A DNA stretch of 64,000 bases from an uncultured candidatus Porisulfidus sp. (GTDB lineage Bacteria; Pseudomonadota; Gammaproteobacteria; Poriferisulfidales; Poriferisulfidaceae), in contig OY764335.1 of the NCBI GenBank assembly GCA_963668445.1, positions 532,297 to 596,296 of the forward strand, read 5' to 3'. Below the pieces are notes generated by a model. It was not told the origin of the DNA. It worked only from the letters and a program-made list of their open reading frames with translations, and did no database searches. The stretch's first letter is position 1. Every line of letters starts with the position of its first letter. This document shows, piece after piece, positions 716-50,499 of this stretch. Made by a program: the position numbers and the translations under genes.

Positions 716-800
716 CCGCGACCCGGCGCCATCCGCCCACTCCTCGGTCCTGTTAAACTTGTTGCACTTGCAATTTGAATCCAGGTTTGGCTTGACAAAA
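716..800 (+). promoter_or_regulatory. Conserved non-coding element, copy 1 of 2. It contains the near-palindrome TTGCAcTTGCAA and sits upstream of the aprM promoter.
   Basis: About 70 of 75 nt are identical to the reverse complement of 50300-50385 (gccatccgcccactcctc.gtcctg.taaacttgttgc.cttgcaatttgaatcc.gg...tttgg.ttgacaa). It lies in the divergent intergenic region between the surface protein gene and aprM. Confidence 0.5.
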
Positions 801-814
801 AACCGCGCAGCAAC

Positions 815-842
815 TTGCGAAGACCATATTTTTTGGTATAAT
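815..842 (+). promoter_or_regulatory. Candidate sigma70 promoter for aprM-aprB-aprA: -35 TTGCGA (815-820), 16-nt spacer, -10 TATAAT (837-842).
   Basis: Hexamers with canonical spacing read directly from the sequence, 50 nt upstream of the proposed aprM ATG at 892. An alternative -35 TTGACA lies at 792-797. Confidence 0.35.
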
Positions 843-891: not shown

Positions 892-1671
892 ATGTTTGCC
901 AGCAATCCCTTTGCTGAGCTGTCGGCGTACATTTCCAGCGCCGTGGCACAGGCTTTCGTCGCAGTGATGTTCGTGCTGGTCGTGGCGGGCACGCTGTTTG
1001 ATGTCATCCATAAGAAGAGCGCCAAATACTTTTTTGAAGACTGGCAGAAAGCCAAGAGCAAAGGAGCCAGGCAAGTCGGAGGCGGGGAAGTCGTATCCAT
1101 GGCCGCACGTACCTTGGCGAGCGAAGTGCTGACATCATCGGAATTTTGCTCCGCTCGGCGCAGGATCGCCCATTTGCTGACAATGTACGGCTTTGTCGCC
1201 TATATCGTGGCAACCGCCGTCATGGTATTCGGATACCCGACTTCGGCCAGTCCGACACCTGTCGTCTGGCCGATGGTGTGGCACATTGGAGCGCTGATGG
1301 TTTGCGTTGGCGGGTACTGGTTCTGGTTTTTCATTCGCGTCGATGTCACGGCCGAGGGCCATTCGCCGTTCCGCATCGTGCGCGCCGACCTGTTCGTCCT
1401 CTCGCTGGTGGCGAGCACGACCTTGGCCTTGGCCTGGTCATGGCTGCAGCCATCGATGCTTGGGTGGCTGTTTTTTGGGCTGTACGTGCTGGCTAGCGCC
1501 ATCCTGTTCGGATCCGTACCTTGGTCCAAGTTTGCGCATATGTTTTTCAAGCCTTCTGCCGCCTTGCAGAAAAGGGTGGCGGAAGCGGCCGGCACGAGAA
1601 GCAATTTGCCGGCGCCGGTGGACAAGCCCGAAACATTCGGTTCGGCGCGCCGGCTGCCGATGGATTATTGA
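892..1671 (+). CDS. aprM: Adenylylsulfate reductase membrane anchor AprM.
   Basis: Polytopic membrane protein (MFASNPFAELSAYISSAVAQAFVAVMFVLVVAG...) immediately upstream of aprB and aprA. The start was moved to the internal ATG at 892 because the ORF-track start at 841 overlaps the -10 hexamer. Confidence 0.75.
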   Translation: MFASNPFAELSAYISSAVAQAFVAVMFVLVVAGTLFDVIHKKSAKYFFEDWQKAKSKGARQVGGGEVVSMAARTLASEVLTSSEFCSARRRIAHLLTMYGFVAYIVATAVMVFGYPTSASPTPVVWPMVWHIGALMVCVGGYWFWFFIRVDVTAEGHSPFRIVRADLFVLSLVASTTLALAWSWLQPSMLGWLFFGLYVLASAILFGSVPWSKFAHMFFKPSAALQKRVAEAAGTRSNLPAPVDKPETFGSARRLPMDY

Positions 1672-1707
1672 CCCACCCAGCTTGGTAGCAGGAGGAAACA
1701 CAATACC

Positions 1708-2142
1708 ATGCCAACTTTCGTATACATGACACGCTGCGACGGCTGCGGCCACTGCGTCGATATCTGCCCTTCGGACATCATGCACATCGATAAGACCTAT
1801 CGGCGCGCCTACAACATTGAGCCCAACATGTGCTGGGAGTGCTACTCCTGCGTGAAGGCTTGCCCGCAAAATGCGATTGATGCGCGCGGCTATGCCGATT
1901 TTGCGCCTCTCGGCCACAGCGTCAGAGCGCTTCGTGAAGAAGAAAAGGGCACGATTTCCTGGAAAATCCTGTTCCGCGACGGCCGGGAGAAGAATTTCGT
2001 TTCGCCGATCCGGACCACCAAATGGGGCACGATTCCGTCCCCGGCCGAGTTGGAGGCACCCGGTGCGGAAGCGATGCAATCTCAAGAACTCGCGCACGAA
2101 CCGGATGCGCTCAACATCGACGGCGGACTACCCACGCTGTAG
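1708..2142 (+). CDS. aprB: Adenylylsulfate (APS) reductase beta subunit, an iron-sulfur protein.
   Basis: MPTFVYMTRCDGCGHCVDICPSDIMHID...CWECYSCVKACPQNAI carries two 4Fe-4S ferredoxin motifs, the AprB hallmark. An AGGAGG RBS lies at 1690-1695. Confidence 0.9.
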   Translation: MPTFVYMTRCDGCGHCVDICPSDIMHIDKTYRRAYNIEPNMCWECYSCVKACPQNAIDARGYADFAPLGHSVRALREEEKGTISWKILFRDGREKNFVSPIRTTKWGTIPSPAELEAPGAEAMQSQELAHEPDALNIDGGLPTL

Positions 2143-2171
2143 ATGGCCCACTAAAGCAAAAGCAGGAGCAC

Positions 2172-4019
2172 ATGATGGGATGGCTTAACCGAAGGAAAAC
2201 GATCCTTGTGGATTCCGATGTCCTCGTCGTCGGCGGCGGCATGGCCGGCTGCGGGGCCACGTACGAATCCAAATACTGGGGACGCGACCTGAAGGTGGTC
2301 TGCGTCGAAAAGGCGAATATCGAGCGCAGCGGCGCAGTCGCCCAAGGCCTGTACGCAATCAACTGCTACATGGGCATGCAGTGGGGCGAGAACCAGCCAG
2401 AGGATCATGTCCGCTATGCGCGCAGCGACCTCATGGGGCTTGTGCGGGAAGATTTGGGCTACGACATCGCCCGGCACGTCGATGCCACGGTGCATAAGTT
2501 TGAAGAATGGGGCCTCCCCATCATGCGGGATCCGGAAACGGGGCGCTACCAGCGCGAGGGCAAATGGCAGATCATGATCCATGGCGAAAGCTACAAGCCG
2601 ATTGTTGCTGAGGCTGCCCGCAAGGCTGCCGACGAGATATACAACCGCATCATGGTGACGCACCTGCTGATGGACGAGCTGAAACCGAACCGCGTGGCCG
2701 GTGCCGTCGGCTTCAATGTCCGCACGGGCGATTTCTATGTGTTCCGGTCCAAGGCCGTAATCGTTTGTGCCGGCGGTGCCTCGCACATATACAAGCCCCG
2801 CTCTGTGGGCGAAGGCATGGGGCGCACGTGGTATGCCCCGTGGAGCAGCGCATCGGCCTATGCGCTCCCGATTCTCGCCGGTGCCAAGATGACGCAAATG
2901 GAGAATCGGATCGTCCTTGCCCGGTTCAAGGACGGCTACGGCCCTGTCGGTGCCTACTTCCTGCACCTCAAGACTTATACGCAGAACGGCTACGGCGAGG
3001 AATACGAATCCAAATGGTATGAGCAGACGAAGGCGCTCGTCGGCGATTACATCGACAAGCATCCGACTCCGACCTGTCTGCGCAACCATGCTTTCCTTGA
3101 AGAAGTGAAAGCGGGCAGAGGCCCCATCCGCATGGTGACCAAAGAGGCTTTCCAGGATCCGCATAAGGAGACCGTGGGATGGGAGAACTTTCTCGGCATG
3201 ACCATCGGCCAAGCGGTCGTTTGGGCGTCGCAGAACATCGACCCCAAGCATACCAACCCGGAACTGACGACTTCCGAGCCCTACGTCATGGGCTCTCATG
3301 CCACCTGCTCGGGAGCTTGGGCAAGCGGCCCTTCGGATTGCGCGCCTTCGGATTATCAGTGGGGCTACAACCGCATGATGACCGTGGAAGGACTATTCGG
3401 CGCAGGGGACACGATCGGCGGCACCGCGCACAAGTTTTCGTCGGGCTCCTACACGGAAGGCCGAATCGCGGCCAAGGCAGCGGTCAATTACGTGAACGAC
3501 ATGAAAAACGAAAAGATTCGAGTCGGCGAAAAACAGTATCAGGATCTAAAGAAGGCCATCTACAAGCCCTTGGAAAATTACGAAGTCGGTCGTAACGAGA
3601 TCGTGGCGGGGACCGTCTCGCCAAGCTACATCTTGCCGATCCACGGCCTGCAACGCCTGGAAAAGATCATGGACGAATATGTCGGTGGCATTAGCACGAA
3701 CTATGTGACCAATGAGCCCTTGCTGACTCGCGGCTTGGAGCTGCTGGACATGCTGAAGGAGGACCTCGACAATATCGGGGCCGAAGACCTTCATCAACTG
3801 CAAAGGGCATGGGAGCTTCAACACCGGTTTCTGGCTTCGCAGTCGGTGGCCCACCATACGCTGTTCCGCAAGGAGACGCGTTGGCCGGGGTACTACTACC
3901 GGGGCGATTTCCCGAAACTCAACGACGAGGACTGGCACTGCTTCACTCTGTCCCGCTATGATCGGAGTTCCGACAGCTGGGAGGTGGAGAAGGCTCCCGT
4001 CCACCACATAATCGACTAA
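2172..4019 (+). CDS. aprA: Adenylylsulfate (APS) reductase alpha subunit, a flavoprotein.
   Basis: MMGWLNRRKTILVDSDVLVVGGGMAGCGATYE has an FAD-binding GxGxxG motif. The protein is about 615 aa with a fumarate-reductase/AprA-like fold and ends ...RWPGYYYRGDFPKLNDEDWHCF. RBS AGGAG lies at 2164-2168. The ORF-track start at 2022 is an upstream extension. Confidence 0.9.
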   Translation: MMGWLNRRKTILVDSDVLVVGGGMAGCGATYESKYWGRDLKVVCVEKANIERSGAVAQGLYAINCYMGMQWGENQPEDHVRYARSDLMGLVREDLGYDIARHVDATVHKFEEWGLPIMRDPETGRYQREGKWQIMIHGESYKPIVAEAARKAADEIYNRIMVTHLLMDELKPNRVAGAVGFNVRTGDFYVFRSKAVIVCAGGASHIYKPRSVGEGMGRTWYAPWSSASAYALPILAGAKMTQMENRIVLARFKDGYGPVGAYFLHLKTYTQNGYGEEYESKWYEQTKALVGDYIDKHPTPTCLRNHAFLEEVKAGRGPIRMVTKEAFQDPHKETVGWENFLGMTIGQAVVWASQNIDPKHTNPELTTSEPYVMGSHATCSGAWASGPSDCAPSDYQWGYNRMMTVEGLFGAGDTIGGTAHKFSSGSYTEGRIAAKAAVNYVNDMKNEKIRVGEKQYQDLKKAIYKPLENYEVGRNEIVAGTVSPSYILPIHGLQRLEKIMDEYVGGISTNYVTNEPLLTRGLELLDMLKEDLDNIGAEDLHQLQRAWELQHRFLASQSVAHHTLFRKETRWPGYYYRGDFPKLNDEDWHCFTLSRYDRSSDSWEVEKAPVHHIID

Positions 4020-13422: not shown

Positions 13423-13584
13423 ATGCATCGATCGGCTCTTGACGGAAGGGGCACGCCCCCGGTGCACTGTCTGCTGCGGCAGGCGGTTTTGTGGCTCGTG
13501 TTGTCCGGCGCAGTCGCGGGATGCGGGCAGATGGGTCCGCTGGAGCCGCCTCCGGAGACGGAATTCGCCGCCACGAGCCGTTAA
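13423..13584 (+). CDS. Small lipoprotein, possibly LptM/YifL-like, upstream of lysA.
   Basis: ...LWLVLSGAVAGCGQMGPLEPPPETEFAATSR has the lipobox VAGC. The stop overlaps the lysA ATG (TAATG). The start is uncertain: ATG at 13423 or GTG at 13462. Confidence 0.3.
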   Translation: MHRSALDGRGTPPVHCLLRQAVLWLVLSGAVAGCGQMGPLEPPPETEFAATSR

Positions 13585-14843
13585 TGGAAGATTTCATTTA
13601 TCGCGAGGGCCGGCTGCACGCGGAGTCGGTGCCAGTACGGGAGATTGCGGAAGCGTACGGCACGCCATGCTATGTCTATTCGGCGACCGCAATGACCCGT
13701 CGCATCACCGAATTGCATGCGGCCTTCGGCGCACAGCCGCATCGAATCTGCTACGCCGTCAAAGCGAACGGCAATCTGGCCGTATTGCAGCGCTTGGCGC
13801 AGTTGGGCTGCGCTTTCGACATCGTGTCTGGCGGCGAGTTGGCGCGCGTGCGTGCGGCTGGCGGCGACCTGTCGCAGACGGTGTTTTCGGGGGTGGGAAA
13901 ATCCGAGGTCGAAATCCGGCAGGCGCTGGAGGCGGGCATCGGCGCCTTCCATGTGGAATCGGTCAGCGAACTGAAGCGGATCGACCGGATCGCCGGCGAA
14001 GAAGGCGTGACGGCGCCGGTCTCGTTGCGCATCAACCCGGCCGTCCAAGTGGACACGCATCCGAATATCGCGACGGGCTTTCGCGGCAGCAAGTTCGGCA
14101 TTCCGATGGAGGATGCGCTGGACGGCTACCGACTGGCCGCCGAACGGGATGCCCTGAAGATTTGCGGTGTGGCTTGCCACATCGGTTCGCAACTGGTCAA
14201 TGCGGAGCCGATTCTGGAGGCAGTGCGGCAACTGGTCGAATTGGCGGATACGCTGCGCGATGAGGGCATCGCGCTGGACTATGTGGATGCCGGCGGCGGG
14301 TTGGGGATCTGCTACAACAACGAACATCCGCCGCAGGCGAACGCGTATGTGGAAGGGCTTCAGCAGGCGATCGGCGATCGGCCCTTGACATTGGTCATCG
14401 AGCCGGGGCGGTTTGTCATGGGCAATGCGGGAATTCTGCTGACTCGTGTGGAATACATCAAGCGCACGGCGGGCGGCTGCTTCGCGGTGGTGGATGGCGC
14501 CATGACCGAACTGATGCGCCCGGCCCTGTATGGCGCTTGGCATGCCATCATGCCGGAACGGCAGCGCACGGAGACAGACGAGACCATCACCTGCGATGTC
14601 GTGGGCCCGGTGTGCGAGACGACCGACTGCCTCGGCCGCGCCCGGCGCCTGGCCGTTCAGGAAGGAGACTTGCTGGCGGTGTTTTCCGCCGGCGCTTACG
14701 CGTCGTCGATGTCCAGTTCCTACAACGCCCGTCCGCCTGCGCCCGAGGTCATGGTTGAGGAGAATCAGTATGACCTGATTCGGCAACGCGGGAATGCGGC
14801 GCAGCTGTATGCGGAAGACCGGCTTCTGTACAATGACGGCTGA
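13584..14843 (+). CDS. lysA: Diaminopimelate decarboxylase.
   Basis: MEDFIYREGRLHAESVPVREIAEAYGTPCYVYS...ICYAVKANGNLAVL is a PLP-dependent Orn/DAP decarboxylase of about 420 aa. Confidence 0.9.
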   Translation: MEDFIYREGRLHAESVPVREIAEAYGTPCYVYSATAMTRRITELHAAFGAQPHRICYAVKANGNLAVLQRLAQLGCAFDIVSGGELARVRAAGGDLSQTVFSGVGKSEVEIRQALEAGIGAFHVESVSELKRIDRIAGEEGVTAPVSLRINPAVQVDTHPNIATGFRGSKFGIPMEDALDGYRLAAERDALKICGVACHIGSQLVNAEPILEAVRQLVELADTLRDEGIALDYVDAGGGLGICYNNEHPPQANAYVEGLQQAIGDRPLTLVIEPGRFVMGNAGILLTRVEYIKRTAGGCFAVVDGAMTELMRPALYGAWHAIMPERQRTETDETITCDVVGPVCETTDCLGRARRLAVQEGDLLAVFSAGAYASSMSSSYNARPPAPEVMVEENQYDLIRQRGNAAQLYAEDRLLYNDG

Positions 14844-14862
14844 CAGCGGCTACCGAAATCGC

Positions 14863-15573
14863 ATGAACGCCCGTTTCCCAGCCATTTTTTTACTGGCCGC
14901 GTCGTCTGCAGCGCAGGCCGAATGCTCCCGGGAAGATGTCCAGTTCTATCTGGATCGGGGCTTCAGCCATGAACAGGTGGCCCAATTGTGTTCCGTGCAG
15001 CCGCACGCCAAGCAGTCCTACCGTGCGTATACGGACGAGTACGTCGACCGGGCCGACCACGAGTACCAGGCGCGCATGCGGCTGGAGCGGGAGGTCACCT
15101 TGCGCGGTGCCATCGAAGGCAACGATGTGCAGTTGCAGGGCGGCTACCTGTCGTATATCCGCAAGCAATGCGTAAGCGAAGGCGTGGAGAAGGATCGCAT
15201 GTTCGGGCTCAAATCCTGTCCGAATGTCCGGTACCGTATCCGCTTGGCGGGGCTGACGATCGATCCGAAGGAATACAAGAAGCGGTTCCTTTACGGCCAG
15301 CGCATGATTCGCGTGGAAGGCGTCATCCGTCGCCAACCGATGCCGGATGCCTTCTCCGACATTCCTGACGAGTACTGGCGGGCGCAATTGCGCAAGAAGC
15401 TGGAATCCGGCAATTCCACCAAGATTCCGTTGCGTTCGGGCGTGGACTTCCATTTCGTGCGCGGCACCATGGAGGACATGGTGGCCTTCGAAACCCGCCG
15501 CATTGAGGAACGCAACCGCCGCCATGCGGAAGAGAGTTCGGACGATCTGGATTTGAGCGGCGCTCTCGAATAA
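14863..15573 (+). CDS. Hypothetical secreted protein.
   Basis: Signal peptide MNARFPAIFLLAASSAAQA/EC. No motif identified. It lies immediately upstream of the second aprBA. Confidence 0.5.
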   Translation: MNARFPAIFLLAASSAAQAECSREDVQFYLDRGFSHEQVAQLCSVQPHAKQSYRAYTDEYVDRADHEYQARMRLEREVTLRGAIEGNDVQLQGGYLSYIRKQCVSEGVEKDRMFGLKSCPNVRYRIRLAGLTIDPKEYKKRFLYGQRMIRVEGVIRRQPMPDAFSDIPDEYWRAQLRKKLESGNSTKIPLRSGVDFHFVRGTMEDMVAFETRRIEERNRRHAEESSDDLDLSGALE

Positions 15574-15757: not shown

Positions 15758-16219
15758 ATGCCGACTTTCGTACGCACCGACAAATGCGACGGGTGCAAGG
15801 GCCAAGACAAGGCGGCCTGCATGTACATATGTCCTCACGATCTGATGCGTCTGGACGAGGACGGCACCGAGACCGGGCATGCCATGAAGGCATACAATCA
15901 GGAGCCGGAGCAGTGCTGGGAATGCTATGCCTGCGTCAAGATTTGTCCGCAGCAGGCGATCGAATGCCGCCACTATGCGGATGTCGTCCCGTTGGGAGCT
16001 TCGGTGCAGCCGTTGCGCGGCACGGATTCCGTCATGTGGGCCATCAAGTTTCGCAACGGCACCATGAAGCACTTCAAGTTCCCCATCCGCACCACGCCGG
16101 AAGGCTCGGCCAACCCGTTCGGCGGCGAGAACGAGGCGGTGACGGCGGAAGGCAAGGACCACAGCACTCTTTTTACCAAAGGCACGCACAGCTGCGACAT
16201 GTCGCAGTTTGCGAACTGA
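15758..16219 (+). CDS. aprB: APS reductase beta subunit, second copy.
   Basis: MPTFVRTDKCDGCKGQDKAACMYICPHDLMRLD...CWECYACVKICPQQAI. An AGGAGG RBS lies at 15748-15753. Confidence 0.9.
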   Translation: MPTFVRTDKCDGCKGQDKAACMYICPHDLMRLDEDGTETGHAMKAYNQEPEQCWECYACVKICPQQAIECRHYADVVPLGASVQPLRGTDSVMWAIKFRNGTMKHFKFPIRTTPEGSANPFGGENEAVTAEGKDHSTLFTKGTHSCDMSQFAN

Positions 16220-16259
16220 CAGCCGTGCCGGGCAGCGTGAAGGATGGGAGAGACAACCA

Positions 16260-18227
16260 ATGGCTGAATTCGGGAATCCCGAGATTGTCGAGGAAGAAGT
16301 CGATATTCTTCTGATCGGCGGCGGCATGGCGTGTTGCGGCGCGGCATTCGAAGTGTCGCGCTGGGTCGAGAAGGCTCGCGCCGAAGGCCATGACATCAAG
16401 GTCAAGCTTGTGGACAAGGCGGCCATGGACCGTTCTGGCGCCGTGGCGCAGGGGCTGTCCGCAATCAACACGTACATGGGCGAAAACGATCCGGCGGAGT
16501 ATGTGCGGTATGTGCGCGGCGACCTGATGGGCATCGTGCGCGAAGACCTCGTCTACGACGTCGGCCGGCATGTGGACGATTCGGTGCACAACTTCGAGAA
16601 GTGGGGCCTGCCGATCTGGAAACAGTCCGGCGACGAAGGCAAGCGGCTGGCCGACGGCGGCAAGCCGGTGCGCTCCGGGCGCTGGCAGATCATGATCAAC
16701 GGCGAGTCCTACAAGTGGATCGTGGCCGAGGCGGCGAAGAAGGCTTTGGGCATCGAGAACATCGACGAGCATATCTTCATCGTGCGGCTGATTACCGACA
16801 AGAACGACCCGACCTGCGTGGCGGGCGCGGCCGGCTTCAGCGTGCGCGACGACCGCGTGCACATCTACCGCTTCAAGTGCTGCCTGTTGGCATGCGGTGG
16901 TGCCGTCAATGTATTCCGCCCGCGTTCGGTGGGTGAAGGCATGGGACGGGCTTGGTACCCGGTGTGGAACGCCGGTTCCACCTACTCGATGGCGGCTGAA
17001 TGCGGCGCCGAACTGACCATGATGGAAAACCGCTTCGTGCCGGCCCGCTTCAAGGACGGCTACGGTCCGGTGGGCGCATGGTTCTTGCTGTTCAAAGCGA
17101 AGGCGATGAACGCATTCGGCGAGGACTATCAGGCCAAGAACTACGAGGATCTGAAGACCTACGGCTACGATGCCTACGCCAGCGGCCGCAAGATGGGCAC
17201 CTGCCTGCGCAACCATCTCATGATGAAGGAGTTGAAGGAGGGCCGCGGCCCGATCTTCATAGATACGCCGACGGCCATGGCCAAACTGGCGGAAAACATG
17301 ACGCCGAAGGAGATCAAGCATATGGAGGCCGAAGCATGGGAGGACTTCCTCGACATGACGATCGGCCAGTGCGGCGTGTGGGCCGGCGAGAACATCGAAC
17401 CGGACAAGGAAATGTCCGAACTGATGCCGACCGAGCCCTACCTGCTCGGCTCCCATGCCGGCTGTGCAGGCATCTGGGTGTCGGGTCCGGAAGATTTGCC
17501 GGGCACGCCCGACCACTACCATTGGGGCTACAACCGGATGGCCACCGTGTCCGGCCTGTTCACCGCCGGCGACGGCGTGGGCGCTTCAGGCCACAAGTTT
17601 TCCAGCGGGTCGCATTCCGAGGGACGGATCGCCGGCAAAGCTATGGTGCAGTACGTGCGGGACAATGCGGACTTCAAGCCGGAATTGGGCCGCTCCGTGG
17701 AGGATATCGTGGAAGAGATCTACCGCCCGGTGCGGAACTTCCTCGATCACAAGGACTACACGACCGCGATCGATGTCAATCCGCACTACATCACGCCGAA
17801 GATGTTCCAGTTCCGCCTGCAGAAAGTCATGGACGAATACGTGGCAGGCATCTCAACCATGTACCAGACGAACAAGCGCATGCTGGAACTGGCCGAACGC
17901 AAGCTGGAGATGTTGCGCGAGGATTCGCTGAAAATGCGGGCCAAGGACCTGCACGAGCTGTTGCGGGCTTGGGAGAACTACCATCGCCTGATTACTGCCT
18001 TCGCGCATATGAAGCACATCAAGTTCCGCGAGGAGACGCGCTACCCGGGCTACTACTACCGGGCCGACTACATGCGGATCGATGACGAGAACTGGAAGTG
18101 CTTCGTCAACTCCCAATTCGATCGGGACACCGGCGAGTGGAGCATGAAGAAGGTTCCGTATGTGCAACTGATCAAGGCCAGCGAGGAAGAGCCGGAGGGC
18201 ATGGGTCGCGTTGGCAGTGCTTGCTGA
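16260..18227 (+). CDS. aprA: APS reductase alpha subunit, second copy.
   Basis: MAEFGNPEIVEEEVDILLIGGGMACCGAAFE...RYPGYYYRADYMRIDDENWKCF is paralogous to 2172-4019. Confidence 0.9.
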   Translation: MAEFGNPEIVEEEVDILLIGGGMACCGAAFEVSRWVEKARAEGHDIKVKLVDKAAMDRSGAVAQGLSAINTYMGENDPAEYVRYVRGDLMGIVREDLVYDVGRHVDDSVHNFEKWGLPIWKQSGDEGKRLADGGKPVRSGRWQIMINGESYKWIVAEAAKKALGIENIDEHIFIVRLITDKNDPTCVAGAAGFSVRDDRVHIYRFKCCLLACGGAVNVFRPRSVGEGMGRAWYPVWNAGSTYSMAAECGAELTMMENRFVPARFKDGYGPVGAWFLLFKAKAMNAFGEDYQAKNYEDLKTYGYDAYASGRKMGTCLRNHLMMKELKEGRGPIFIDTPTAMAKLAENMTPKEIKHMEAEAWEDFLDMTIGQCGVWAGENIEPDKEMSELMPTEPYLLGSHAGCAGIWVSGPEDLPGTPDHYHWGYNRMATVSGLFTAGDGVGASGHKFSSGSHSEGRIAGKAMVQYVRDNADFKPELGRSVEDIVEEIYRPVRNFLDHKDYTTAIDVNPHYITPKMFQFRLQKVMDEYVAGISTMYQTNKRMLELAERKLEMLREDSLKMRAKDLHELLRAWENYHRLITAFAHMKHIKFREETRYPGYYYRADYMRIDDENWKCFVNSQFDRDTGEWSMKKVPYVQLIKASEEEPEGMGRVGSAC

Positions 18228-24012: not shown

Positions 24013-25272
24013 TCATGGCGCGAACGGCGGCAGTTTGCGTTCGACGGCAATGTTTTTGAGCTTGGCATAAGTCGGCAGGCCTTGTCGGAACGGCGGAGGC
24101 TCTTCGCCGCGGATGAGCGGCTCCAAGTACGCACGGCAGCGCTTGGTGATGCCGAAGCCATTGCGGGTGATGTAGCTGCGCGGCATCATGCGTTCCCGGT
24201 TGGCGACGCGGGATAGGGCGACATGGCCAATTTTCCAACGGTACGGACGATCGGAGGTGCGCACGATCGTCGGCATCACGGCCGTGTGCCCGGCAACGGC
24301 CAGCCGGACGGCGGCGCGGCCGACCCCATACGCCTGTTGCAGGTCGGTCGCGGAAGCGATGTGGCGAGCGGCGCGTTGCAGATAGTCGGCGACTGCCCAG
24401 TGGTACTTGTAGCCGAGGCGCTCTTTGACCATGTGCGCGAGAATCAGGGCGTTGCCGCCGAGTTGCGCATGGCCGAAGGCATCGCTAGAGCCGACCTCGG
24501 CCAGAAATTTGCCGTCCGGGGTGCGTACGCCTTCGGACGCGACGATGGCGCAGAAGCCGAAGCGTTGCACGCAGTCGTCGACGCGGGCTAGGAAGGCCTT
24601 GGCATCGAACGGGATTTCCGGGAACAGGATGAGATGCGGGGCGTCGCCGGGGGCTTCGGCGGCCAAGCCGCCGGCCGCGGCGATCCAGCCGGCGTGGCGG
24701 CCCATTACTTCGAGAATGAACACTTTGGTGGATGTCGCCGCCATGCCGGCGACATCCAGACCGGCCTCGCGGATCGAGGTGCCGACGTATTTCGCGACTG
24801 AGCCGAAGCCGGGGCAGTTGTCGGTGACGGGCAGATCGTTGTCGACCGTCTTCGGCACACCGATGCAGCGAAGAGGATATTTCAGCGAGCGAGCGAGCTG
24901 GGCGATCTTCCAGGCAGTGTCTTGCGAATCGCCGCCGCCGTTGTAGAAGAAATAGCCGATATCGTGCGCGTCGAACACCTCGATCAGGCGTTCGTATTCG
25001 CGCCGGTTCTCTTCGAGGCCCTTGAGTTTATAGCGGCAGGAGCCGAACGCGGCGCCCGGCGTGTTGCGCAGCGCGGCGATCGTGCGCGAGGTCTCGCGAT
25101 GGGTGTCGATCAGGTCTTCATGCAGAGCGCCGAGGATGCCGTGGCGCCCGGCATACACGCGGCCGATATGCGTTCGGCAGCCCCGGGCTGTTTCGATTAC
25201 GCCGCAGGCCGAAGCGTTGATGACGGCCGTCGGCCCTCCCGACTGGGCGTAGAAGGCGTTGCGGGGGCTCAT
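24013..25272 (-). CDS. pfp: Pyrophosphate-dependent 6-phosphofructokinase.
   Basis: MSPRNAFYAQSGGPTAVINASACGVIETAR...GGGDSQDTAWKIA...PKTVDNDL are PFK family signatures, in a roughly 420-aa PPi-type architecture. Confidence 0.8.
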   Translation of the reverse strand: MSPRNAFYAQSGGPTAVINASACGVIETARGCRTHIGRVYAGRHGILGALHEDLIDTHRETSRTIAALRNTPGAAFGSCRYKLKGLEENRREYERLIEVFDAHDIGYFFYNGGGDSQDTAWKIAQLARSLKYPLRCIGVPKTVDNDLPVTDNCPGFGSVAKYVGTSIREAGLDVAGMAATSTKVFILEVMGRHAGWIAAAGGLAAEAPGDAPHLILFPEIPFDAKAFLARVDDCVQRFGFCAIVASEGVRTPDGKFLAEVGSSDAFGHAQLGGNALILAHMVKERLGYKYHWAVADYLQRAARHIASATDLQQAYGVGRAAVRLAVAGHTAVMPTIVRTSDRPYRWKIGHVALSRVANRERMMPRSYITRNGFGITKRCRAYLEPLIRGEEPPPFRQGLPTYAKLKNIAVERKLPPFAP

Positions 25273-25649
25273 GGCGCCTCCGATGCTCGTCCGCGACCGG
25301 TCATGCGTGCATAGTCGGACTGCATCTGCAGCAGTTGCATGACGCATTCGGCAAGTTCCGTGTAGTCGGTCACATCCGGGCCCATCTGCTGCAAGCCATT
25401 ATAGAAAAATGGGCATCGGTAGTGGCTCTCGCCGGCCTTGACGATGAGGAAGTTGCAGTCGTTGGCGGCCCAGAACAGGGCCGGGCCGGGCGTGCCGCTT
25501 TCGGCCTTCGGGCGCAGGCCGATTTCCATGTCGGCCGCATGCAGTTCCACGGCACCTTGGCCCCAACGTTCCTTGACGGCGGTTTGGGTCACCCGTTTTT
25601 CACGATCCGTGAAGTCGGCGATGTTCGAAGGCACGGCGGATGCGGCCAT
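25269..25649 (-). CDS. Hypothetical protein co-transcribed upstream of pfp.
   Basis: 126-aa ORF whose stop overlaps the pfp ATG. No recognisable motif. Confidence 0.35.
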   Translation of the reverse strand: MAASAVPSNIADFTDREKRVTQTAVKERWGQGAVELHAADMEIGLRPKAESGTPGPALFWAANDCNFLIVKAGESHYRCPFFYNGLQQMGPDVTDYTELAECVMQLLQMQSDYARMTGRGRASEAP

Positions 25650-29711: not shown

Positions 29712-29884
29712 GGAATGATATGAGCCCTCTGGGTTCGTCCAAGCCCGATAGAATCAGATGGATTCATGGGCAGGGCCTTGTTCATGCATGCCCGCTGCCA
29801 ATGTCCGATTGCCCGAAACGTGAGATTCCGGTACGATTGTCGTGAGTTGGGGAGGCGGCTTGAACTGGCTTCGGCGGCGAAAGG

Positions 29885-32800
29885 TCAGAACATCAGTTCG
29901 ATTTTCAGATGGATGCTCAAGCCATTTGCCTCGTTGCTGGCGGCATGTTCGCCGAACACATCCGCGCGCCATTGCGCCATGGCGCCTGTCTCGCGCCCGA
30001 ACCGCACACCCAATCGCATTTTCGAGAGGTCGCTGCTGTGTTCCGCCTTGCCAAACCACTCGATCGGCCGCCTCAGCCACGGCGACCACATGCCGTATCC
30101 GACTTCCACTCCCATGGCTGCGGATTCATTCGGTGCTGATCGATCAGCCAGATCGGCGGCGTTCTCCTCCCACATCGTGGACGAGCTGTCGGTTGGCGCG
30201 CCCCATCGCGGGGACAGCATCAGGGACAGCCCGCGACCGTCCGCGTCTGGATTTTTCTTCAGCGTCACACTCACGCCCCGTTCTTCGTAGTCGCTCTCGG
30301 AATGTGCTGCCAGCCATCGCCCTTGTACATCCAGTGCCCAGCCGTCGACCACACTTTCGAAATACATGCCGCCGGCCAATTCCAGCCCGACTCCTTCGGA
30401 CCCGTTGCCACCATCGTAGCGGGCAAACGCCTGCGCGTACGGATTCGTGAAGTTGCCAGCCTCGTCCTCGATTGTCCGGGAATATTCCATTCCGGCACGG
30501 ACCTGATGCGCATTCGCTGTCAGGTCGTCAATCTCCAGAATCTCGCCATCGGCTTCCAGCTGGACGTATCCGGCATCGGCCATCAGTGCCCAGCGATGGT
30601 CCTTCCGCTCCGATTCCCCGAGTTCTCGGCGCAAGCCCACCGAAGCCATCTGCATCGATAGGTCTCTGTGCTCGGAATCCGCGCTGTCCATGCCGCTACG
30701 CAAGCTCTCCAATTCGATATCCCCCTCGCCTGCGCCCAGCATCATCCAAACCCCTACACCATCTCCCAAGTCCACATGGGCGTAAGGATGCACACTGGTC
30801 AGTTTCATCTCCATCGTGCCCGACCCGTTTAGACCTTGCTCGCCGAAAGAATAATCCGAATGCGCCCGACGATGCGATACCGCAACTCCGGCGATCCATT
30901 GTTTCTGAATGCGGGCATCAACGCCTACGTAGAACGAGCGCATGTCGCTTTCGTAATGGCCATTGCCATTGATTTCACCGGAGCTTTCCGTGTAGTCGCC
31001 CTGACCCCAGACGCTCCATTGCGCATGCGACGCTTCACTGCCCGCATTGAGGGAGAAGTCAAAAGTGCTTTCCAACAACCATTCGGTTGTGCTGATGCGA
31101 GAGCCCTCGTCCGTTACCGAGCCTGCTTTGAACCTTTCGATAACATCTAACGCGGCTGGCTGCGTCAAGGTTCGACGGTCGGATTCCGATGTGTCTGGCT
31201 CCAGTCCGGCCATACGAATCACGTCGTCGGGCGGCTTCGCAAACCTCCAATTTAGCACTTGCTGCGTACTTGCCATCATGCTGCCTGCGATTTGGCTCAA
31301 GGAGGCTTCCAAGACTGCCTTTTCCTCAATGGTATCTGTTTGCACCGCGATGGTAAAGGCGGCGGCGGCACTGTTGCCGTCGGCGTCGGTGGCGGTGTAG
31401 GTGTAGCCGGTGGCGGCCTGGGTGCCGCTGGGGGTGCCGGACAGGGTGCGGGTGGCGGCGTCGAAGCTCAGCCCGGGGGGCAGCGCCGGGGTGCCGCTGG
31501 TGCGCGCCAGCGCGTAGCTGAGCGCGCCGTTGCCGCCGCTGGCCAGCGGCAACGCCAAGTCCGTGATTCTGCGGCCTCGTGCATACACCTGGTCGGCAAT
31601 TGTGTCGTTCAAGGTTGGAGGGCCCAAGGGGGGGCTCTCTATAGATTCCTGCACCATGATGGTGAAGGTGGCGGTGGCGGCGTCGCCGTCGGCGTCGGTG
31701 GCGGTGTAGGTGTAGCCGGTGGCGGCCTGGGTGCCGCTGGGGGTGCCGGACAGGGTGCGGGTGGCGGCGTCGAAGCTCAGCCCGGGGGGCAGCGCCGGGG
31801 TGCCGCTGGTGCGCGCCAGCGCGTAGCTGAGCGCGCCGTTGCCGCCGGTCGCGGCCGGCAGCACCAGATCGGTGATCGGGCGGCCCTCGGAGTAGGCCTG
31901 GTCGGACGGCGCGGTCACGGCGGGCTGGCTGTTGGACTCGACCGCGAGGCTGAAGGTCGCCGAGTCGGTCTCGCCGTCGGCGTCGGTGACCGCGTACTTC
32001 AGGCTGGCGGTGGCGGCGCTGCCCGGCGTGGTGCCGGACAGGGTGCGGGTGGCGGCGGCGAACGACAGCCAGGCGGGCAGCGCGGTGCCGTCTTCCTTGG
32101 TCAGCGCGTAGCTCAGCGGGGCGTTGCCGCCGGTGGCGGCCGGCAGCTGGTGCGAGACGCTGCGCCCGGTGCCGTAGGTGAGGCCGGCCTGGGACGGCAG
32201 GTCCGGGGCGCTGTTCGCGGCCACCGCGATGGTGAAGGTGGCGGTGGCGGCGTCGCCGTCGGCGTCGGTGGCGGTGTAGGTGTAGCCGGTGGCGGCCTGG
32301 GTGCCGCTGGGGGTGCCGGACAGGGTGCGGGTGGCGGCGTCGAAGCTCAGCCCGGGGGGCAGCGCCGGGGTGCCGCTGGTGCGCGCCAGCGCGTAGCTGA
32401 GCGCGCCGTTGCCGCCGGTCGCGGCCGGCAGCACCAGATCGGTGATCGGGCGGCCCTCGGAGTAGGCCTGGTCGGACGGCGCGGTCACGGCGGGCTGGCT
32501 GTTGGACTCGACCGCGAGGCTGAAGGTCGCCGAGTCGGTCTCGCCGTCGGCGTCGGTGACCGCGTACTTCAGGCTGGCGGTGGCGGCGCTGCCCGGCGTG
32601 GTGCCGGACAGGGTGCGGGTGGCGGCGGCGAACGACAGCCAGGCGGGCAGCGCGGTGCCGTCTTCCTTGGTCAGCGCGTAGCTCAGCGGGGCGTTGCCGC
32701 CGGTGGCGGCCGGCAGCTGGTGCGAGACGCTGCGCCCGGTGCCGTAGGTGAGGCCGGCCTGGGACGGCAGGTCCGGGGCGCTGTTCGCGGCCACCGCGAT

Positions 32801-35800
32801 GGTGAAGGTGGCGGTGGCGGCGTCGCCGTCGGCGTCGGTGGCGGTGTAGGTGTAGCCGGTGGCGGCCTGGGTGCCGCTGGGGGTGCCGGACAGGGTGCGG
32901 GTGGCGGCGTCGAAGCTCAGCCCGGGGGGCAGCGCCGGGGTGCCGCTGGTGCGCGCCAGCGCGTAGCTGAGCGCGCCGTTGCCGCCGGTCGCGGCCGGCA
33001 GCACCAGATCGGTGATCGGGCGGCCCTCGGAGTAGGCCTGGTCGGACGGCGCGGTCACGGCGGGCTGGCTGTTGGACTCGACCGCGAGGCTGAAGGTCGC
33101 CGAGTCGGTCTCGCCGTCGGCGTCGGTGACCGCGTACTTCAGGCTGGCGGTGGCGGCGCTGCCCGGCGTGGTGCCGGACAGGGTGCGGGTGGCGGCGGCG
33201 AACGACAGCCAGGCGGGCAGCGCGGTGCCGTCTTCCTTGGTCAGCGCGTAGCTCAGCGGGGCGTTGCCGCCGGTGGCGGCCGGCAGCTGGTGCGAGACGC
33301 TGCGCCCGGTGCCGTAGGTGAGGCCGGCCTGGGACGGCAGGTCCGGGGCGCTGTTCGCGGCCACCGCGATGGTGAAGGTGGCGGTGGCGGCGTCGCCGTC
33401 GGCGTCGGTGGCGGTGTAGGTGTAGCCGGTGGCGGCCTGGGTGCCGCTGGGGGTGCCGGACAGGGTGCGGGTGGCGGCGTCGAAGCTCAGCCCGGGGGGC
33501 AGCGCCGGGGTGCCGCTGGTGCGCGCCAGCGCGTAGCTGAGCGCGCCGTTGCCGCCGGTCGCGGCCGGCAGCACCAGATCGGTGATCGGGCGGCCCTCGG
33601 AGTAGGCCTGGTCGGACGGCGCGGTCACGGCGGGCTGGCTGTTGGACTCGACCGCGAGGCTGAAGGTCGCCGAGTCGGTCTCGCCGTCGGCGTCGGTGAC
33701 CGCGTACTTCAGGCTGGCGGTGGCGGCGCTGCCCGGCGTGGTGCCGGACAGGGTGCGGGTGGCGGCGGCGAACGACAGCCAGGCGGGCAGCGCGGTGCCG
33801 TCTTCCTTGGTCAGCGCGTAGCTCAGCGGGGCGTTGCCGCCGGTGGCGGCCGGCAGCTGGTGCGAGACGCTGCGCCCGGTGCCGTAGGTGAGGCCGGCCT
33901 GGGACGGCAGGTCCGGGGCGCTGTTCGCGGCCACCGCGATGGTGAAGGTGGCGGTGGCGGCGTCGCCGTCGGCGTCGGTGGCGGTGTAGGTGTAGCCGGT
34001 GGCGGCCTGGGTGCCGCTGGGGGTGCCGGACAGGGTGCGGGTGGCGGCGTCGAAGCTCAGCCCGGGGGGCAGCGCCGGGGTGCCGCTGGTGCGCGCCAGC
34101 GCGTAGCTGAGCGCGCCGTTGCCGCCGGTCGCGGCCGGCAGCACCAGATCGGTGATCGGGCGGCCCTCGGAGTAGGCCTGGTCGGACGGCGCGGTCACGG
34201 CGGGCTGGCTGTTGGACTCGACCGCGAGGCTGAAGGTCGCCGAGTCGGTCTCGCCGTCGGCGTCGGTGACCGCGTACTTCAGGCTGGCGGTGGCGGCGCT
34301 GCCCGGCGTGGTGCCGGACAGGGTGCGGGTGGCGGCGGCGAACGACAGCCAGGCGGGCAGCGCGGTGCCGTCTTCCTTGGTCAGCGCGTAGCTCAGCGGG
34401 GCGTTGCCGCCGGTGGCGGCCGGCAGCTGGTGCGAGACGCTGCGCCCGGTGCCGTAGGTGAGGCCGGCCTGGGACGGCAGGTCCGGGGCGCTGTTCGCGG
34501 CCACCGCGATGGTGAAGGTGGCGGTGGCGGCGTCGCCGTCGGCGTCGGTGGCGGTGTAGGTGTAGCCGGTGGCGGCCTGGGTGCCGCTGGGGGTGCCGGA
34601 CAGGGTGCGGGTGGCGGCGTCGAAGCTCAGCCCGGGGGGCAGCGCCGGGGTGCCGCTGGTGCGCGCCAGCGCGTAGCTGAGCGCGCCGTTGCCGCCGGTC
34701 GCGGCCGGCAGCACCAGATCGGTGATCGGGCGGCCCTCGGAGTAGGCCTGGTCGGACGGCGCGGTCACGGCGGGCTGGCTGTTGGACTCGACCGCGAGGC
34801 TGAAGGTCGCCGAGTCGGTCTCGCCGTCGGCGTCGGTGACCGCGTACTTCAGGCTGGCGGTGGCGGCGCTGCCCGGCGTGGTGCCGGACAGGGTGCGGGT
34901 GGCGGCGGCGAACGACAGCCAGGCGGGCAGCGCGGTGCCGTCTTCCTTGGTCAGCGCGTAGCTCAGCGGGGCGTTGCCGCCGGTGGCGGCCGGCAGCTGG
35001 TGCGAGACGCTGCGCCCGGTGCCGTAGGTGAGGCCGGCCTGGGACGGCAGGTCCGGGGCGCTGTTCGCGGCCACCGCGATGGTGAAGGTGGCGGTGGCGG
35101 CGTCGCCGTCGGCGTCGGTGGCGGTGTAGGTGTAGCCGGTGGCGGCCTGGGTGCCGCTGGGGGTGCCGGACAGGGTGCGGGTGGCGGCGTCGAAGCTCAG
35201 CCCGGGGGGCAGCGCCGGGGTGCCGCTGGTGCGCGCCAGCGCGTAGCTGAGCGCGCCGTTGCCGCCGGTCGCGGCCGGCAGCACCAGATCGGTGATCGGG
35301 CGGCCCTCGGAGTAGGCCTGGTCGGACGGCGCGGTCACGGCGGGCTGGCTGTTGGACTCGACCGCGAGGCTGAAGGTCGCCGAGTCGGTCTCGCCGTCGG
35401 CGTCGGTGACCGCGTACTTCAGGCTGGCGGTGGCGGCGCTGCCCGGCGTGGTGCCGGACAGGGTGCGGGTGGCGGCGGCGAACGACAGCCAGGCGGGCAG
35501 CGCGGTGCCGTCTTCCTTGGTCAGCGCGTAGCTCAGCGGGGCGTTGCCGCCGGTGGCGGCCGGCAGCTGGTGCGAGACGCTGCGCCCGGTGCCGTAGGTG
35601 AGGCCGGCCTGGGACGGCAGGTCCGGGGCGCTGTTCGCGGCCACCGCGATGGTGAAGGTGGCGGTGGCGGCGTCGCCGTCGGCGTCGGTGGCGGTGTAGG
35701 TGTAGCCGGTGGCGGCCTGGGTGCCGCTGGGGGTGCCGGACAGGGTGCGGGTGGCGGCGTCGAAGCTCAGCCCGGGGGGCAGCGCCGGGGTGCCGCTGGT

Positions 35801-38800
35801 GCGCGCCAGCGCGTAGCTGAGCGCGCCGTTGCCGCCGGTCGCGGCCGGCAGCACCAGATCGGTGATCGGGCGGCCCTCGGAGTAGGCCTGGTCGGACGGC
35901 GCGGTCACGGCGGGCTGGCTGTTGGACTCGACCGCGAGGCTGAAGGTCGCCGAGTCGGTCTCGCCGTCGGCGTCGGTGACCGCGTACTTCAGGCTGGCGG
36001 TGGCGGCGCTGCCCGGCGTGGTGCCGGACAGGGTGCGGGTGGCGGCGGCGAACGACAGCCAGGCGGGCAGCGCGGTGCCGTCTTCCTTGGTCAGCGCGTA
36101 GCTCAGCGGGGCGTTGCCGCCGGTGGCGGCCGGCAGCTGGTGCGAGACGCTGCGCCCGGTGCCGTAGGTGAGGCCGGCCTGGGACGGCAGGTCCGGGGCG
36201 CTGTTCGCGGCCACCGCGATGGTGAAGGTGGCGGTGGCGGCGTCGCCGTCGGCGTCGGTGGCGGTGTAGGTGTAGCCGGTGGCGGCCTGGGTGCCGCTGG
36301 GGGTGCCGGACAGGGTGCGGGTGGCGGCGTCGAAGCTCAGCCCGGGGGGCAGCGCCGGGGTGCCGCTGGTGCGCGCCAGCGCGTAGCTGAGCGCGCCGTT
36401 GCCGCCGGTCGCGGCCGGCAGCACCAGATCGGTGATCGGGCGGCCCTCGGAGTAGGCCTGGTCGGACGGCGCGGTCACGGCGGGCTGGCTGTTGGACTCG
36501 ACCGCGAGGCTGAAGGTCGCCGAGTCGGTCTCGCCGTCGGCGTCGGTGACCGCGTACTTCAGGCTGGCGGTGGCGGCGCTGCCCGGCGTGGTGCCGGACA
36601 GGGTGCGGGTGGCGGCGGCGAACGACAGCCAGGCGGGCAGCGCGGTGCCGTCTTCCTTGGTCAGCGCGTAGCTCAGCGGGGCGTTGCCGCCGGTGGCGGC
36701 CGGCAGCTGGTGCGAGACGCTGCGCCCGGTGCCGTAGGTGAGGCCGGCCTGGGACGGCAGGTCCGGGGCGCTGTTCGCGGCCACCGCGATGGTGAAGGTG
36801 GCGGTGGCGGCGTCGCCGTCGGCGTCGGTGGCGGTGTAGGTGTAGCCGGTGGCGGCCTGGGTGCCGCTGGGGGTGCCGGACAGGGTGCGGGTGGCGGCGT
36901 CGAAGCTCAGCCCGGGGGGCAGCGCCGGGGTGCCGCTGGTGCGCGCCAGCGCGTAGCTGAGCGCGCCGTTGCCGCCGGTCGCGGCCGGCAGCACCAGATC
37001 GGTGATCGGGCGGCCCTCGGAGTAGGCCTGGTCGGACGGCGCGGTCACGGCGGGCTGGCTGTTGGACTCGACCGCGAGGCTGAAGGTCGCCGAGTCGGTC
37101 TCGCCGTCGGCGTCGGTGACCGCGTACTTCAGGCTGGCGGTGGCGGCGCTGCCCGGCGTGGTGCCGGACAGGGTGCGGGTGGCGGCGGCGAACGACAGCC
37201 AGGCGGGCAGCGCGGTGCCGTCTTCCTTGGTCAGCGCGTAGCTCAGCGGGGCGTTGCCGCCGGTGGCGGCCGGCAGCTGGTGCGAGACGCTGCGCCCGGT
37301 GCCGTAGGTGAGGCCGGCCTGGGACGGCAGGTCCGGGGCGCTGTTCGCGGCCACCGCGATGGTGAAGGTGGCGGTGGCGGCGTCGCCGTCGGCGTCGGTG
37401 GCGGTGTAGGTGTAGCCGGTGGCGGCCTGGGTGCCGCTGGGGGTGCCGGACAGGGTGCGGGTGGCGGCGTCGAAGCTCAGCCCGGGGGGCAGCGCCGGGG
37501 TGCCGCTGGTGCGCGCCAGCGCGTAGCTGAGCGCGCCGTTGCCGCCGGTCGCGGCCGGCAGCACCAGATCGGTGATCGGGCGGCCCTCGGAGTAGGCCTG
37601 GTCGGACGGCGCGGTCACGGCGGGCTGGCTGTTGGACTCGACCGCGAGGCTGAAGGTCGCCGAGTCGGTCTCGCCGTCGGCGTCGGTGACCGCGTACTTC
37701 AGGCTGGCGGTGGCGGCGCTGCCCGGCGTGGTGCCGGACAGGGTGCGGGTGGCGGCGGCGAACGACAGCCAGGCGGGCAGCGCGGTGCCGTCTTCCTTGG
37801 TCAGCGCGTAGCTCAGCGGGGCGTTGCCGCCGGTGGCGGCCGGCAGCTGGTGCGAGACGCTGCGCCCGGTGCCGTAGGTGAGGCCGGCCTGGGACGGCAG
37901 GTCCGGGGCGCTGTTCGCGGCCACCGCGATGGTGAAGGTGGCGGTGGCGGCGTCGCCGTCGGCGTCGGTGGCGGTGTAGGTGTAGCCGGTGGCGGCCTGG
38001 GTGCCGCTGGGGGTGCCGGACAGGGTGCGGGTGGCGGCGTCGAAGCTCAGCCCGGGGGGCAGCGCCGGGGTGCCGCTGGTGCGCGCCAGCGCGTAGCTGA
38101 GCGCGCCGTTGCCGCCGGTCGCGGCCGGCAGCACCAGATCGGTGATCGGGCGGCCCTCGGAGTAGGCCTGGTCGGACGGCGCGGTCACGGCGGGCTGGCT
38201 GTTGGACTCGACCGCGAGGCTGAAGGTCGCCGAGTCGGTCTCGCCGTCGGCGTCGGTGACCGCGTACTTCAGGCTGGCGGTGGCGGCGCTGCCCGGCGTG
38301 GTGCCGGACAGGGTGCGGGTGGCGGCGGCGAACGACAGCCAGGCGGGCAGCGCGGTGCCGTCTTCCTTGGTCAGCGCGTAGCTCAGCGGGGCGTTGCCGC
38401 CGGTGGCGGCCGGCAGCTGGTGCGAGACGCTGCGCCCGGTGCCGTAGGTGAGGCCGGCCTGGGACGGCAGGTCCGGGGCGCTGTTCGCGGCCACCGCGAT
38501 GGTGAAGGTGGCGGTGGCGGCGTCGCCGTCGGCGTCGGTGGCGGTGTAGGTGTAGCCGGTGGCGGCCTGGGTGCCGCTGGGGGTGCCGGACAGGGTGCGG
38601 GTGGCGGCGTCGAAGCTCAGCCCGGGGGGCAGCGCCGGGGTGCCGCTGGTGCGCGCCAGCGCGTAGCTGAGCGCGCCGTTGCCGCCGGTCGCGGCCGGCA
38701 GCACCAGATCGGTGATCGGGCGGCCCTCGGAGTAGGCCTGGTCGGACGGCGCGGTCACGGCGGGCTGGCTGTTGGACTCGACCGCGAGGCTGAAGGTCGC

Positions 38801-42895: not shown

Positions 42896-42936
42896 GTCCT
42901 GCAACCATTTCTCAATGGCCTTACGACAGGGCCGAT

Positions 42937-42960
42937 GGGGGGGGGGGGGGGGGGGGGGGG
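42937..42960. repeat. Homopolymeric G/C tract, 24 nt, 41 nt upstream of the giant adhesin start codon. Putative phase-variation switch.
   Basis: 24 consecutive G on the plus strand, counted directly. It lies between the adhesin ATG (42895) and the AT-rich upstream region. Confidence 0.8.
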
Positions 42961-43949
42961 CTGTAATGTTAGGAATGCGCCGCCTGCTGCCATTCGCTGG
43001 CCGGGCCGGATCAATGCTGGCCAAAGCCTTCCGGAAATCCATGCGCGCTAAGCCTTCCCGTGAAAAGCGGAGAATTTGCTCTGGCACCAATTGCGCGGGT
43101 TATAATCCATAGAGATAGCATCTCCACTATGTTTGAATTCTTGTTGTGGTTAATGTGGGTTTGTTCGTTACTTTCTGTTATGTATTTATTAGTTACATCA
43201 CATTTTTGCATGCATGTTTAGGTATCTTATAGCAGATTCCCACAATTTGTCAACAACTGCAAGGCAAATGTCAAACCAAAGCCGGAACGACTATGGCGAG
43301 AAAACTAAGACTTCCCCGAAGGTCCAAAGTGTCAGAAGACTCGGATTCGAAGCGTCAAGTCGGTGTTGAGTTTCAAGGACTGGAGACGGATTTGGAGACT
43401 TAAGGCCGCAGGATTCGACTTGTATCCTTCCTGCCATGATTACGTGCGGATGGTCATAATCAATCTATGGATGACTGCATGAGCATGCTTGATCGGACGC
43501 ACGAAACCGTGCATGGCATACATCGGAGCGTATGCCCACAAGGACGGCATCGCCATCGCCCGGGCGCTGTCGGTCGCAATGGGTGGCATCGCCCGTCATT
43601 CCATGAGTCTTTGCCGCGACGTTCACGATACGGGAGGCTTTGTCGAATGCTGCAGTCGAAGTGTCGCGGCCGGTCTGGGGAACCCTTGATCATGTTCCAG
43701 AGTGCCGGAAAATTCCTAGTAGCAAGACGAAAGCAGCTCGCGACGAACGTGTGATCTTGCAGCAGCCAATCCGCACATAGCAACTTGATCAATCATCGTC
43801 ATTAGCAGTGGCACCCTGACTTGGTGCAAACCTCCGCATTCTCCACTACAAGACATGGTATCATGAAATGCTGCATCGCAGAGCTTTCGCCCGACATCGG
43901 CGGAGGTTACGAGCCGGTCACAACATAGCAGCACAATTATTCTCCAACG

Positions 43950-49696: not shown

Positions 49697-49732
49697 GATT
49701 AGAAGCATCGGAACTTGGGGTTGCGGAAGGCA

Positions 49733-50265: not shown

Positions 50266-50299
50266 GCTTGAATGAAAAGTTGTTTTTCAACTCCCGCAG

Positions 50300-50385: not shown

Positions 50386-50499
50386 AAGTTTAGCAGGACT
50401 GAGGAGTGGGCGGATGGCACCGGGCCGCGTTTCGCCGGAGGTATCGCCATTTTTCTGCTTTGCGAATCCTGAGCCGGATGCGCGCGGAAGATGAAAGCT

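Follow-up and report, generated by a model that had tools for sequence, protein, structure and literature searches.

Why should the same short stretch of non-coding DNA stand in front of two operons as unlike in function as one for sulfur oxidation and one for cell division? The question is raised by the 64-kb stretch of DNA analysed here in full (the window), in which a repeat, E, occurs upstream of aprM at 709-797 on the plus strand, E(A), and again between tpx and a zapB-like gene at 50339-50437 on the minus strand, E(B). Aligned over 709-797 versus 50437-50339, the copies are identical at 79 of 89 positions and differ by 8 transitions, 2 transversions and one 9-nt indel, the segment aattttagc at 50352-50360 (-) that is present in E(B) and missing from E(A). 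The initial annotation had reported a duplicated element, and the duplication proved to be real: a repeat search of the 64-kb window returned inverted-repeat arms at 711-785 and 50361-50435 (75 nt, 89% complementary), blastn aligned the copies with an E-value of 1e-23, and two matches to the 54-nt core (729-782 versus 50417-50364, with 3 mismatches) were obtained in 0 of 100 dinucleotide-preserving shuffles; TTGCAcTTGCAA is a core sequence within E. The first interval assigned to the element, 716-800, is correct; the second, 50300-50385, is displaced by about 50 nt from the true copy at 50339-50437 (-), and comprises only the 3' part of E(B) together with the native zapB promoter. The identity, previously given as about 70 of 75 nt, amounts to 67 of 75, or to 79 of 89.

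Since 10 substitutions and an indel distinguish the copies, an assembly artefact was rejected as the source of E, and the 8:2 ratio of transitions to transversions is the pattern expected for plain mutational drift. Base composition changes along E(A), from 78% GC in the 5' part to 40% in the 3' part, the window standing at 64%. No called open reading frame translates E, and the six-frame peptides of both copies, compared with 5.8 billion protein clusters, gave no match at an E-value of 10. No third copy, even a degenerate one, was detected by blastn within the 64-kb window, and the evidence base for E thus consists of two copies in one genome.

E(A) lies in a divergent intergenic region of about 570 nt, bounded on the left by a minus-strand ORF without annotation or Pfam match, which has its start near 319 and runs beyond the left end of the window. 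A run of 24 G residues (398-421) occupies the same intergenic region; it lies roughly 290 nt to the left of E(A) and some 80-100 nt upstream of that ORF, and could be either a slipped-strand phase-variation tract or a poly-G artefact of sequencing or assembly. On the 3' side of E(A) is the operon formed by aprM (892-1671), aprB (1708-2142) and aprA (about 2172-4019), spanning 892-4019 on the plus strand. Elsewhere in the window, about 11.7 kb downstream of aprMBA, a second aprB/aprA-like pair is found at approximately 15758-18227 (+), with 76% identity over a 63-nt aprA segment, and is preceded by a 259-aa ORF (14794-15573) that overlaps the 3' end of the ORF at 13491-14843 and is a putative second aprM. 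In the related locus L019 the two apr sets are adjacent; in the window they are separated by katG and other genes amounting to about 10 kb.

E(B) is preceded by the co-directional gene tpx (Redoxin; 50500-51006, -), and the order tpx-zapB is the same in relatives. It is followed on the minus strand, within 49515-50265, by the zapB-like gene (50265-50041), zapA (50041-49733) and a 6S RNA (49694-49515). The names originally given to the downstream genes stand for AprB, AprA and ZapA, which have Pfam matches; AprM, for which no Pfam family was matched, is recognized through homologues only, and the ZapB match of the 75-aa, coiled-coil zapB-like product is weak, at 17.6 bits versus a cut-off of 31.5. 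The 6S RNA (RF00013) is a full-length match at 49694-49515 (-) with 36 bits and an E-value of 2e-5, the gathering score being 46.4; it lies directly 3' of zapA and was missed by the default Rfam scan. The succession zapA-ssrS is the usual arrangement, and the 6S RNA region is kept in relatives (tblastx; L022 10345-10572). No tRNA, rRNA or other Rfam family was found at the gathering threshold in the 64 kb. Between the 6S RNA and ilvA, at 48777-49346 (-), lies a gene for a 189-aa Lys/Arg-rich protein without a Pfam match, built of (KRKTAKRKVAKRKYT)-like 15-aa repeats and similar to AlgP or histone H1; relatives carry a comparable gene, which varies in length.

The placement of E relative to these genes is much the same at both loci, where promoters and start sites are predictions. 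E(A) occupies -140 to -52 from the predicted transcription start (about 849) and -183 to -95 from the ATG of aprM; E(B) occupies -146 to -48 from the predicted start (about 50291) and -172 to -74 from the GTG of the zapB-like gene. The 3' ends of E thus lie at -52 and -48, and both copies point at the downstream operon. It was rightly noted before that both copies are non-coding, stand upstream of promoters and are oriented toward two functionally unrelated operons. The -35-like TTGACA hexamer described as lying downstream of the element is, however, the last hexamer of the repeat itself (792-797; 50344-50339), and in neither copy does it have a -10 partner at 16-18 nt. No complete -35/-10 pair with 16-18 nt spacing was found inside E; the promoter scan returned only the predicted aprM core promoter, TTGCGA-16-TGgTATAAT at 815-842 (+), for locus A and nothing for locus B, where the predicted zapB extended -10, TGaTATACT at 50298-50306 (-), is conserved in L024 and L025. 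The AT-rich 3' half of E contains the -35-like hexamers TTGCAC, TTGCAA and TTGACA, at about -90 to -50, and no complete promoter is carried in common by both copies.

An extended -10-like site, TGnTAAACT, is present in both copies (750-758; 50399-50391) without a -35, and its promoter activity is only putative. If it were used, E could be transcribed and act as RNA, be it a shared 5' leader, a small RNA or a 3' element of an upstream transcript. This reading draws on the preservation of the site, which reads TGtTAAACT or TGcTAAACT, the sole change falling at the free position, and on the fact that no terminator is predicted after tpx, so that E(B) may be read through. Against it, the minimum free energies of E are no better than those of shuffled sequences on either strand (z-scores for both strands of both copies of -0.33, +1.62, -0.38 and +0.38), no stable hairpin is formed, the two copies are predicted to fold differently, and the 9-nt indel falls within the predicted stem region. 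An Rfam search around both copies, at the gathering threshold and at an E-value of 1, yielded nothing except the sub-threshold 6S RNA; moreover, copy A has no co-directional upstream gene, and the spacer of the closest relative lacks such a -10-like site. The structured RNA element entertained in the initial annotation thus finds no counterpart in these folds or in Rfam, and a function of E as RNA appears very improbable.

Comparison with relatives' loci separates E from the promoters it accompanies. The aprM loci compared were L019, L027 and L028, with AprM at 82-84% identity, and L020; the zapB loci were L021-L026, reached through ZapA homologues of 84-87% identity. E is absent upstream of aprM in L019, L020, L027 and L028. 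Homology of the aprM upstream region to L027 covers only 828-888, that is, the extended -10 and the 5'UTR, with ATTTTTTGnTATAAT in common (p<0.001). At zapB, the block (G/C)TTGACTTGCAATAATGCG.ATTTT.TGATTTGATATAC is kept in L022-L025, and blastn homology to L024, the closest relative, covers 50514-50463 and 50334-50231; the part between, 50462-50335, which contains E(B), is unaligned, and homology restarts at 50334, 5 nt past the end of E(B). The sequences thus indicate that the core promoters are conserved among relatives and E is not. The zapB promoter itself appears to have undergone turnover (L022 9700-9745 versus window 50338-50298): in L022 TATACC is weakened and TTGACT-17-TATGAT comes close to consensus, and the window and L024 carry TGTGGT/TGTGAT at the site of TATGAT in L022 and would use TGaTATACT, 10 nt further downstream.

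The provenance of E becomes apparent when its sequence is compared with the native zapB promoter. The 64 kb contain exactly three instances of the 14-mer GTTGNNCTTGCAAT: one in each copy of E and one, 47 nt downstream of E(B), in the native zapB block. By chance an estimated 0.008 or so would be expected (12 specified bases in 128 kb). In E(A) the 14-mer reads GTTGCACTTGCAAT (761-774, +), agrees with the native block at 13 of 14 positions and holds TTGCACTTGCAA; in E(B) it reads GTTGCGCTTGCAAT (50372-50385, -) and belongs to a unit, X1, that is the first of a tandem pair; and the native block of the zapB -35 region, GTTGGACTTGCAAT (50325-50338, -), belongs to the second unit, X2, and lies outside the A/B repeat. 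The native block is kept in relatives as (G/C)TTGACTTGCAAT. A second block, TGGyTTGA, follows in each case. In the native promoter it is TGGTTTGA (50304-50311, -), which directly precedes TATACT, the extended -10 taking its TG from it; in E(B) the block is TGGTTTGA again (50342-50349, -), identical to the native one, and in E(A) it is TGGCTTGA (788-795, +), 13 nt after the 14-mer, which is the spacing of the native unit. The 14-mer followed by TGGyTTGA was recovered in 0 of 20,000 shuffles of either copy.

Since the 14-mer and TGGyTTGA recur in tandem, locus B can be read as U'-X1-X2-TATACT, with U' for the native spacer. At zapB the 14-mers are spaced by 47 nt and the 8-mers by 38 nt, only the downstream unit is provided with a -10, and the two units share 22 of 35 positions without gaps. 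The native unit is 35 nt long; X1 is likewise 35 nt in E(A) and is 44 nt in E(B) because of the 9-nt indel. This indel is ambiguous in its polarity, in that E(B) with the 9 nt resembles L022 and E(A) without them has the native unit length. Further upstream, the 34 nt preceding the CTTGCAAT motif in E(B) match the L024 spacer at 21 of 34 positions without gaps (p of 0.002 after allowing for offsets), the corresponding value for the true orthologues L024 and L022 being 19 of 34; gapped alignments of E(B) to relatives are modest (p of 0.06 and 0.02). Two differences between the copies can be polarised, and in both B has the state of L024. The A/B similarity continues through TTGACAA, that is, about 3 nt into X2. 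Taken together, these similarities suggest that E(B) is the parent copy, composed of the native spacer U' and a decayed tandem promoter unit X1; and because E would be native to the zapB locus, we infer that copying ran from zapB to aprM, the simplest history being that E arose at zapB and was then copied.

The same homology bears on the palindrome TTGCA-N2-TGCAA, which had been proposed as the site of a dimeric transcription factor. The palindrome is perfect only in copy A and is broken in copy B, which reads TTGCG..TGCAA; perfect palindromes with 5-bp arms and spacers of 0-10 nt arise at a rate of 0.8 per shuffled E, and 48% of the shuffles contain at least one. It is therefore at chance level, and TTGCACTTGCAA appears most readily understood as a duplicate of the zapB -35 region (TTGACTTGCAA) into which 4 nt were inserted. 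Sites for sigma-54 (-24/-12), LexA, FNR/CRP, regulators of the PurR/LacI type, IHF and Fis were also considered by eye against consensus sequences, and none fits E. As it stands, the locus chiefly cautions against taking short palindromes in duplicated promoter DNA for operators.

A broader form of the proposal is that E is a portable regulatory module, bound by a transcription factor or a nucleoid protein at either TTGCA-N2-TGCAA or the GTTGnnCTTGCAAT block, that would place aprM and zapB-zapA-6S RNA under one regulator. The equal orientation and near-equal distance of the copies to the core promoters (-52 and -48) are what such a module would show, as is the 95% identity of the central 55 nt next to a more diverged left edge; moreover, three lineages preserve the related 14-mer of the native zapB promoter and not the remainder of the spacer. 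Yet the palindrome, besides being at chance level and degraded in copy B, has its centre near -80 in A and near -88 in B, so that the distance is not constant and the shift does not amount to a full turn of the helix. The block in L022 reads as a plain -35 (TTGACT-17-TATGAT), so that -35 function explains its conservation. The motif was not found upstream of other genes in the 64 kb, and no regulator gene is linked to either copy of E. On this balance we consider a regulatory module unlikely.

The surroundings of E(A) add a structural aspect. In L019 a gene for PFK immediately precedes aprM, both being on one strand, and the orientation is the same in L028; in the window, PFK (24013-25347, -) and aprM (892, +) are 23 kb apart and inverted. 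The gene order at aprM therefore differs from that of relatives, the PFK-aprM adjacency having been broken, and E(A) occupies precisely the point where the new upstream neighbour adjoins the conserved core promoter of aprM. Recombination between the inverted copies of E was rejected as an origin of the inversion, given that gene order on the tpx-zapB side matches that of relatives (59969-25222 versus L022), the collinear segments shared with L022 being 59969-43947 and 29717-25222. The intervening stretch, 29717-43947, is missing from the collinear L022 and includes a giant repeat gene at 29885-43090 (-), which encodes 4401 aa and comprises, besides diverged units, about 17 near-identical (99%) units of 570 nt (31343-42419) that each consist of two 285-nt halves. 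On the PFK side, no third, degenerate E was found near the junction (about 24000). The stop codon of PFK overlaps the ATG of the next minus-strand ORF (24013-24020, ATGA), which suggests that the 3' junction of PFK is native and settled and was not created by the assembly. The arrival of E(A) may have coincided with the rearrangement, templated filler DNA being one possibility, or may have followed it.

A copy at a rearranged junction, two copies at unrelated loci within 64 kb, and the failure of E to be aligned by blast to the orthologous spacers of relatives could also be accounted for if E belonged to a family of dispersed repeats specific to this lineage, either REP-like sequences or small, non-autonomous mobile elements, with more copies in the remaining 1.7 Mb of the genome and a tendency to insert upstream of promoters. 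Several observations argue against such a family. No terminal inverted repeats join the ends of E at either locus, the flanks of E share no duplicated bases that would mark a target-site duplication, and a stable hairpin is absent, as is any further copy in the window. The core 20-mer TTGTTGCNCTTGCAATTTGA has exact matches at 5 loci of a genome collection (596 Gb of species representatives) and 13 of a metagenome collection, neither of which included the source genome, and these are chance matches, since only 20-27 nt of the core are matched and the organisms are unrelated; plasmid, phage and viral-contig collections gave no match. It follows from these scans that E is not a known or widespread element, as had been suggested with the idea of a short mobile element. 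Finally, a foreign insert would not be homologous to the native promoter of zapB and the sequence upstream of it, as E(B) is. A dispersed repeat family is accordingly a doubtful explanation.

The reading that best accommodates these observations is that E is probably a DNA-level segmental duplicate of promoter-upstream sequence from zapB, copied to aprM. In a first step, a unit of about 35 nt from the zapB -35 region, extending from GTTGnACTTGCAAT to TGGTTTGA and ending just before the -10, would have been duplicated in tandem, giving U'-X1-X2-TATACT at zapB. In a second step, U' and X1, together with about 3 nt of the X1/X2 junction, would have been copied, inverted, to a position 49.6 kb away, landing just 5' of the ancestral extended -10 promoter of aprMBA at the junction of altered gene order. 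Any activity of the copied sequence would be that of promoter-upstream DNA, offering extra contacts for RNA polymerase or nucleoid proteins. The like orientation of the copies and their near-equal spacing (-52 and -48) weigh against a neutral view of this event, as they would also be expected under selection for a functional module or under a target-site preference. On the sequence evidence, a lineage-specific duplication of a promoter region of this type would be ordinary in kind.

A stronger version of the segmental duplication holds that E(A) is a recent and selected rewiring of a promoter, which brought aprMBA under the upstream control of zapB-zapA-6S RNA, through a regulator or through contacts between RNA polymerase and GTTGnnCTTGCAAT, and thereby coupled energy metabolism to the growth state; we regard this as improbable. 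Were expression of aprMBA changed by the copy, an uncultured sulfur oxidiser would provide a natural example of transcriptional rewiring, and, if this were true, the main sulfur-oxidation operon of an uncultured gammaproteobacterium with a small genome would be tied to a cell-division and growth-phase unit. Apart from any such effect, the locus offers a small and well-resolved case of promoter-upstream DNA that would have been duplicated and moved, in which the donor, the tandem intermediate and the recipient junction are all readable.

Several known systems resemble E in part. MITEs and the Correia elements of Neisseria are short non-coding repeats next to promoters of unrelated genes; unlike them, E has neither terminal inverted repeats nor a target-site duplication, occurs in two copies in 64 kb, and is in its B copy homologous to resident sequence. 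REP and BIME sequences are intergenic repeated palindromes that form hairpins, lie at 3' ends of genes and are abundant, whereas E has no stable hairpin, stands upstream of promoters and is not abundant in the window. The UP element, positioned at -40 to -60, and the Fis sites of rrn P1 are upstream activating regions, and E is similar to them in being AT-rich, in its position at about -50 to -140 and in accompanying promoters of products that are usually abundant (Apr proteins and 6S RNA); it differs in lacking, by eye, a match to the UP consensus or the Fis motif, and the UP position falls mostly outside E. With tandem or decayed duplicate promoters E shares the two head-to-tail units of -35 block and spacer at zapB, the difference being that part of the upstream zapB unit would have been exported to a second locus.

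The closest comparison is with the putative mobile promoters (PMPs), defined as sequences of at least 50 nt and at least 80% identity that precede non-homologous genes of a single genome (Matus-Garcia, Nijveen & van Passel 2012, PMC3488235). Of the published PMP families 68% are doublets, with a mean identity of 92% and a mean length of 66 nt, and the survey used an upstream window of 100-150 nt (PMC3488235). E, a doublet of 75-89 nt at 89% identity, lies within the limits of length and identity. The genes downstream of its copies are non-homologous, AprM and the ZapB-like protein giving no BLASTP alignment at an E-value of 100, and so are the upstream neighbours, tpx (Redoxin) and the divergent ORF without a Pfam match. 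As for position, about 56 nt of E(A) and about 77 nt of E(B) fall inside the 150-nt window, and little of either within 100 nt. E would thus fit the operational definition of a PMP doublet except for lying somewhat further upstream, PMP being an operational class and not a mechanism. It differs from PMPs in lacking a working core promoter and in that its putative donor locus and its internal tandem structure can be reconstructed.
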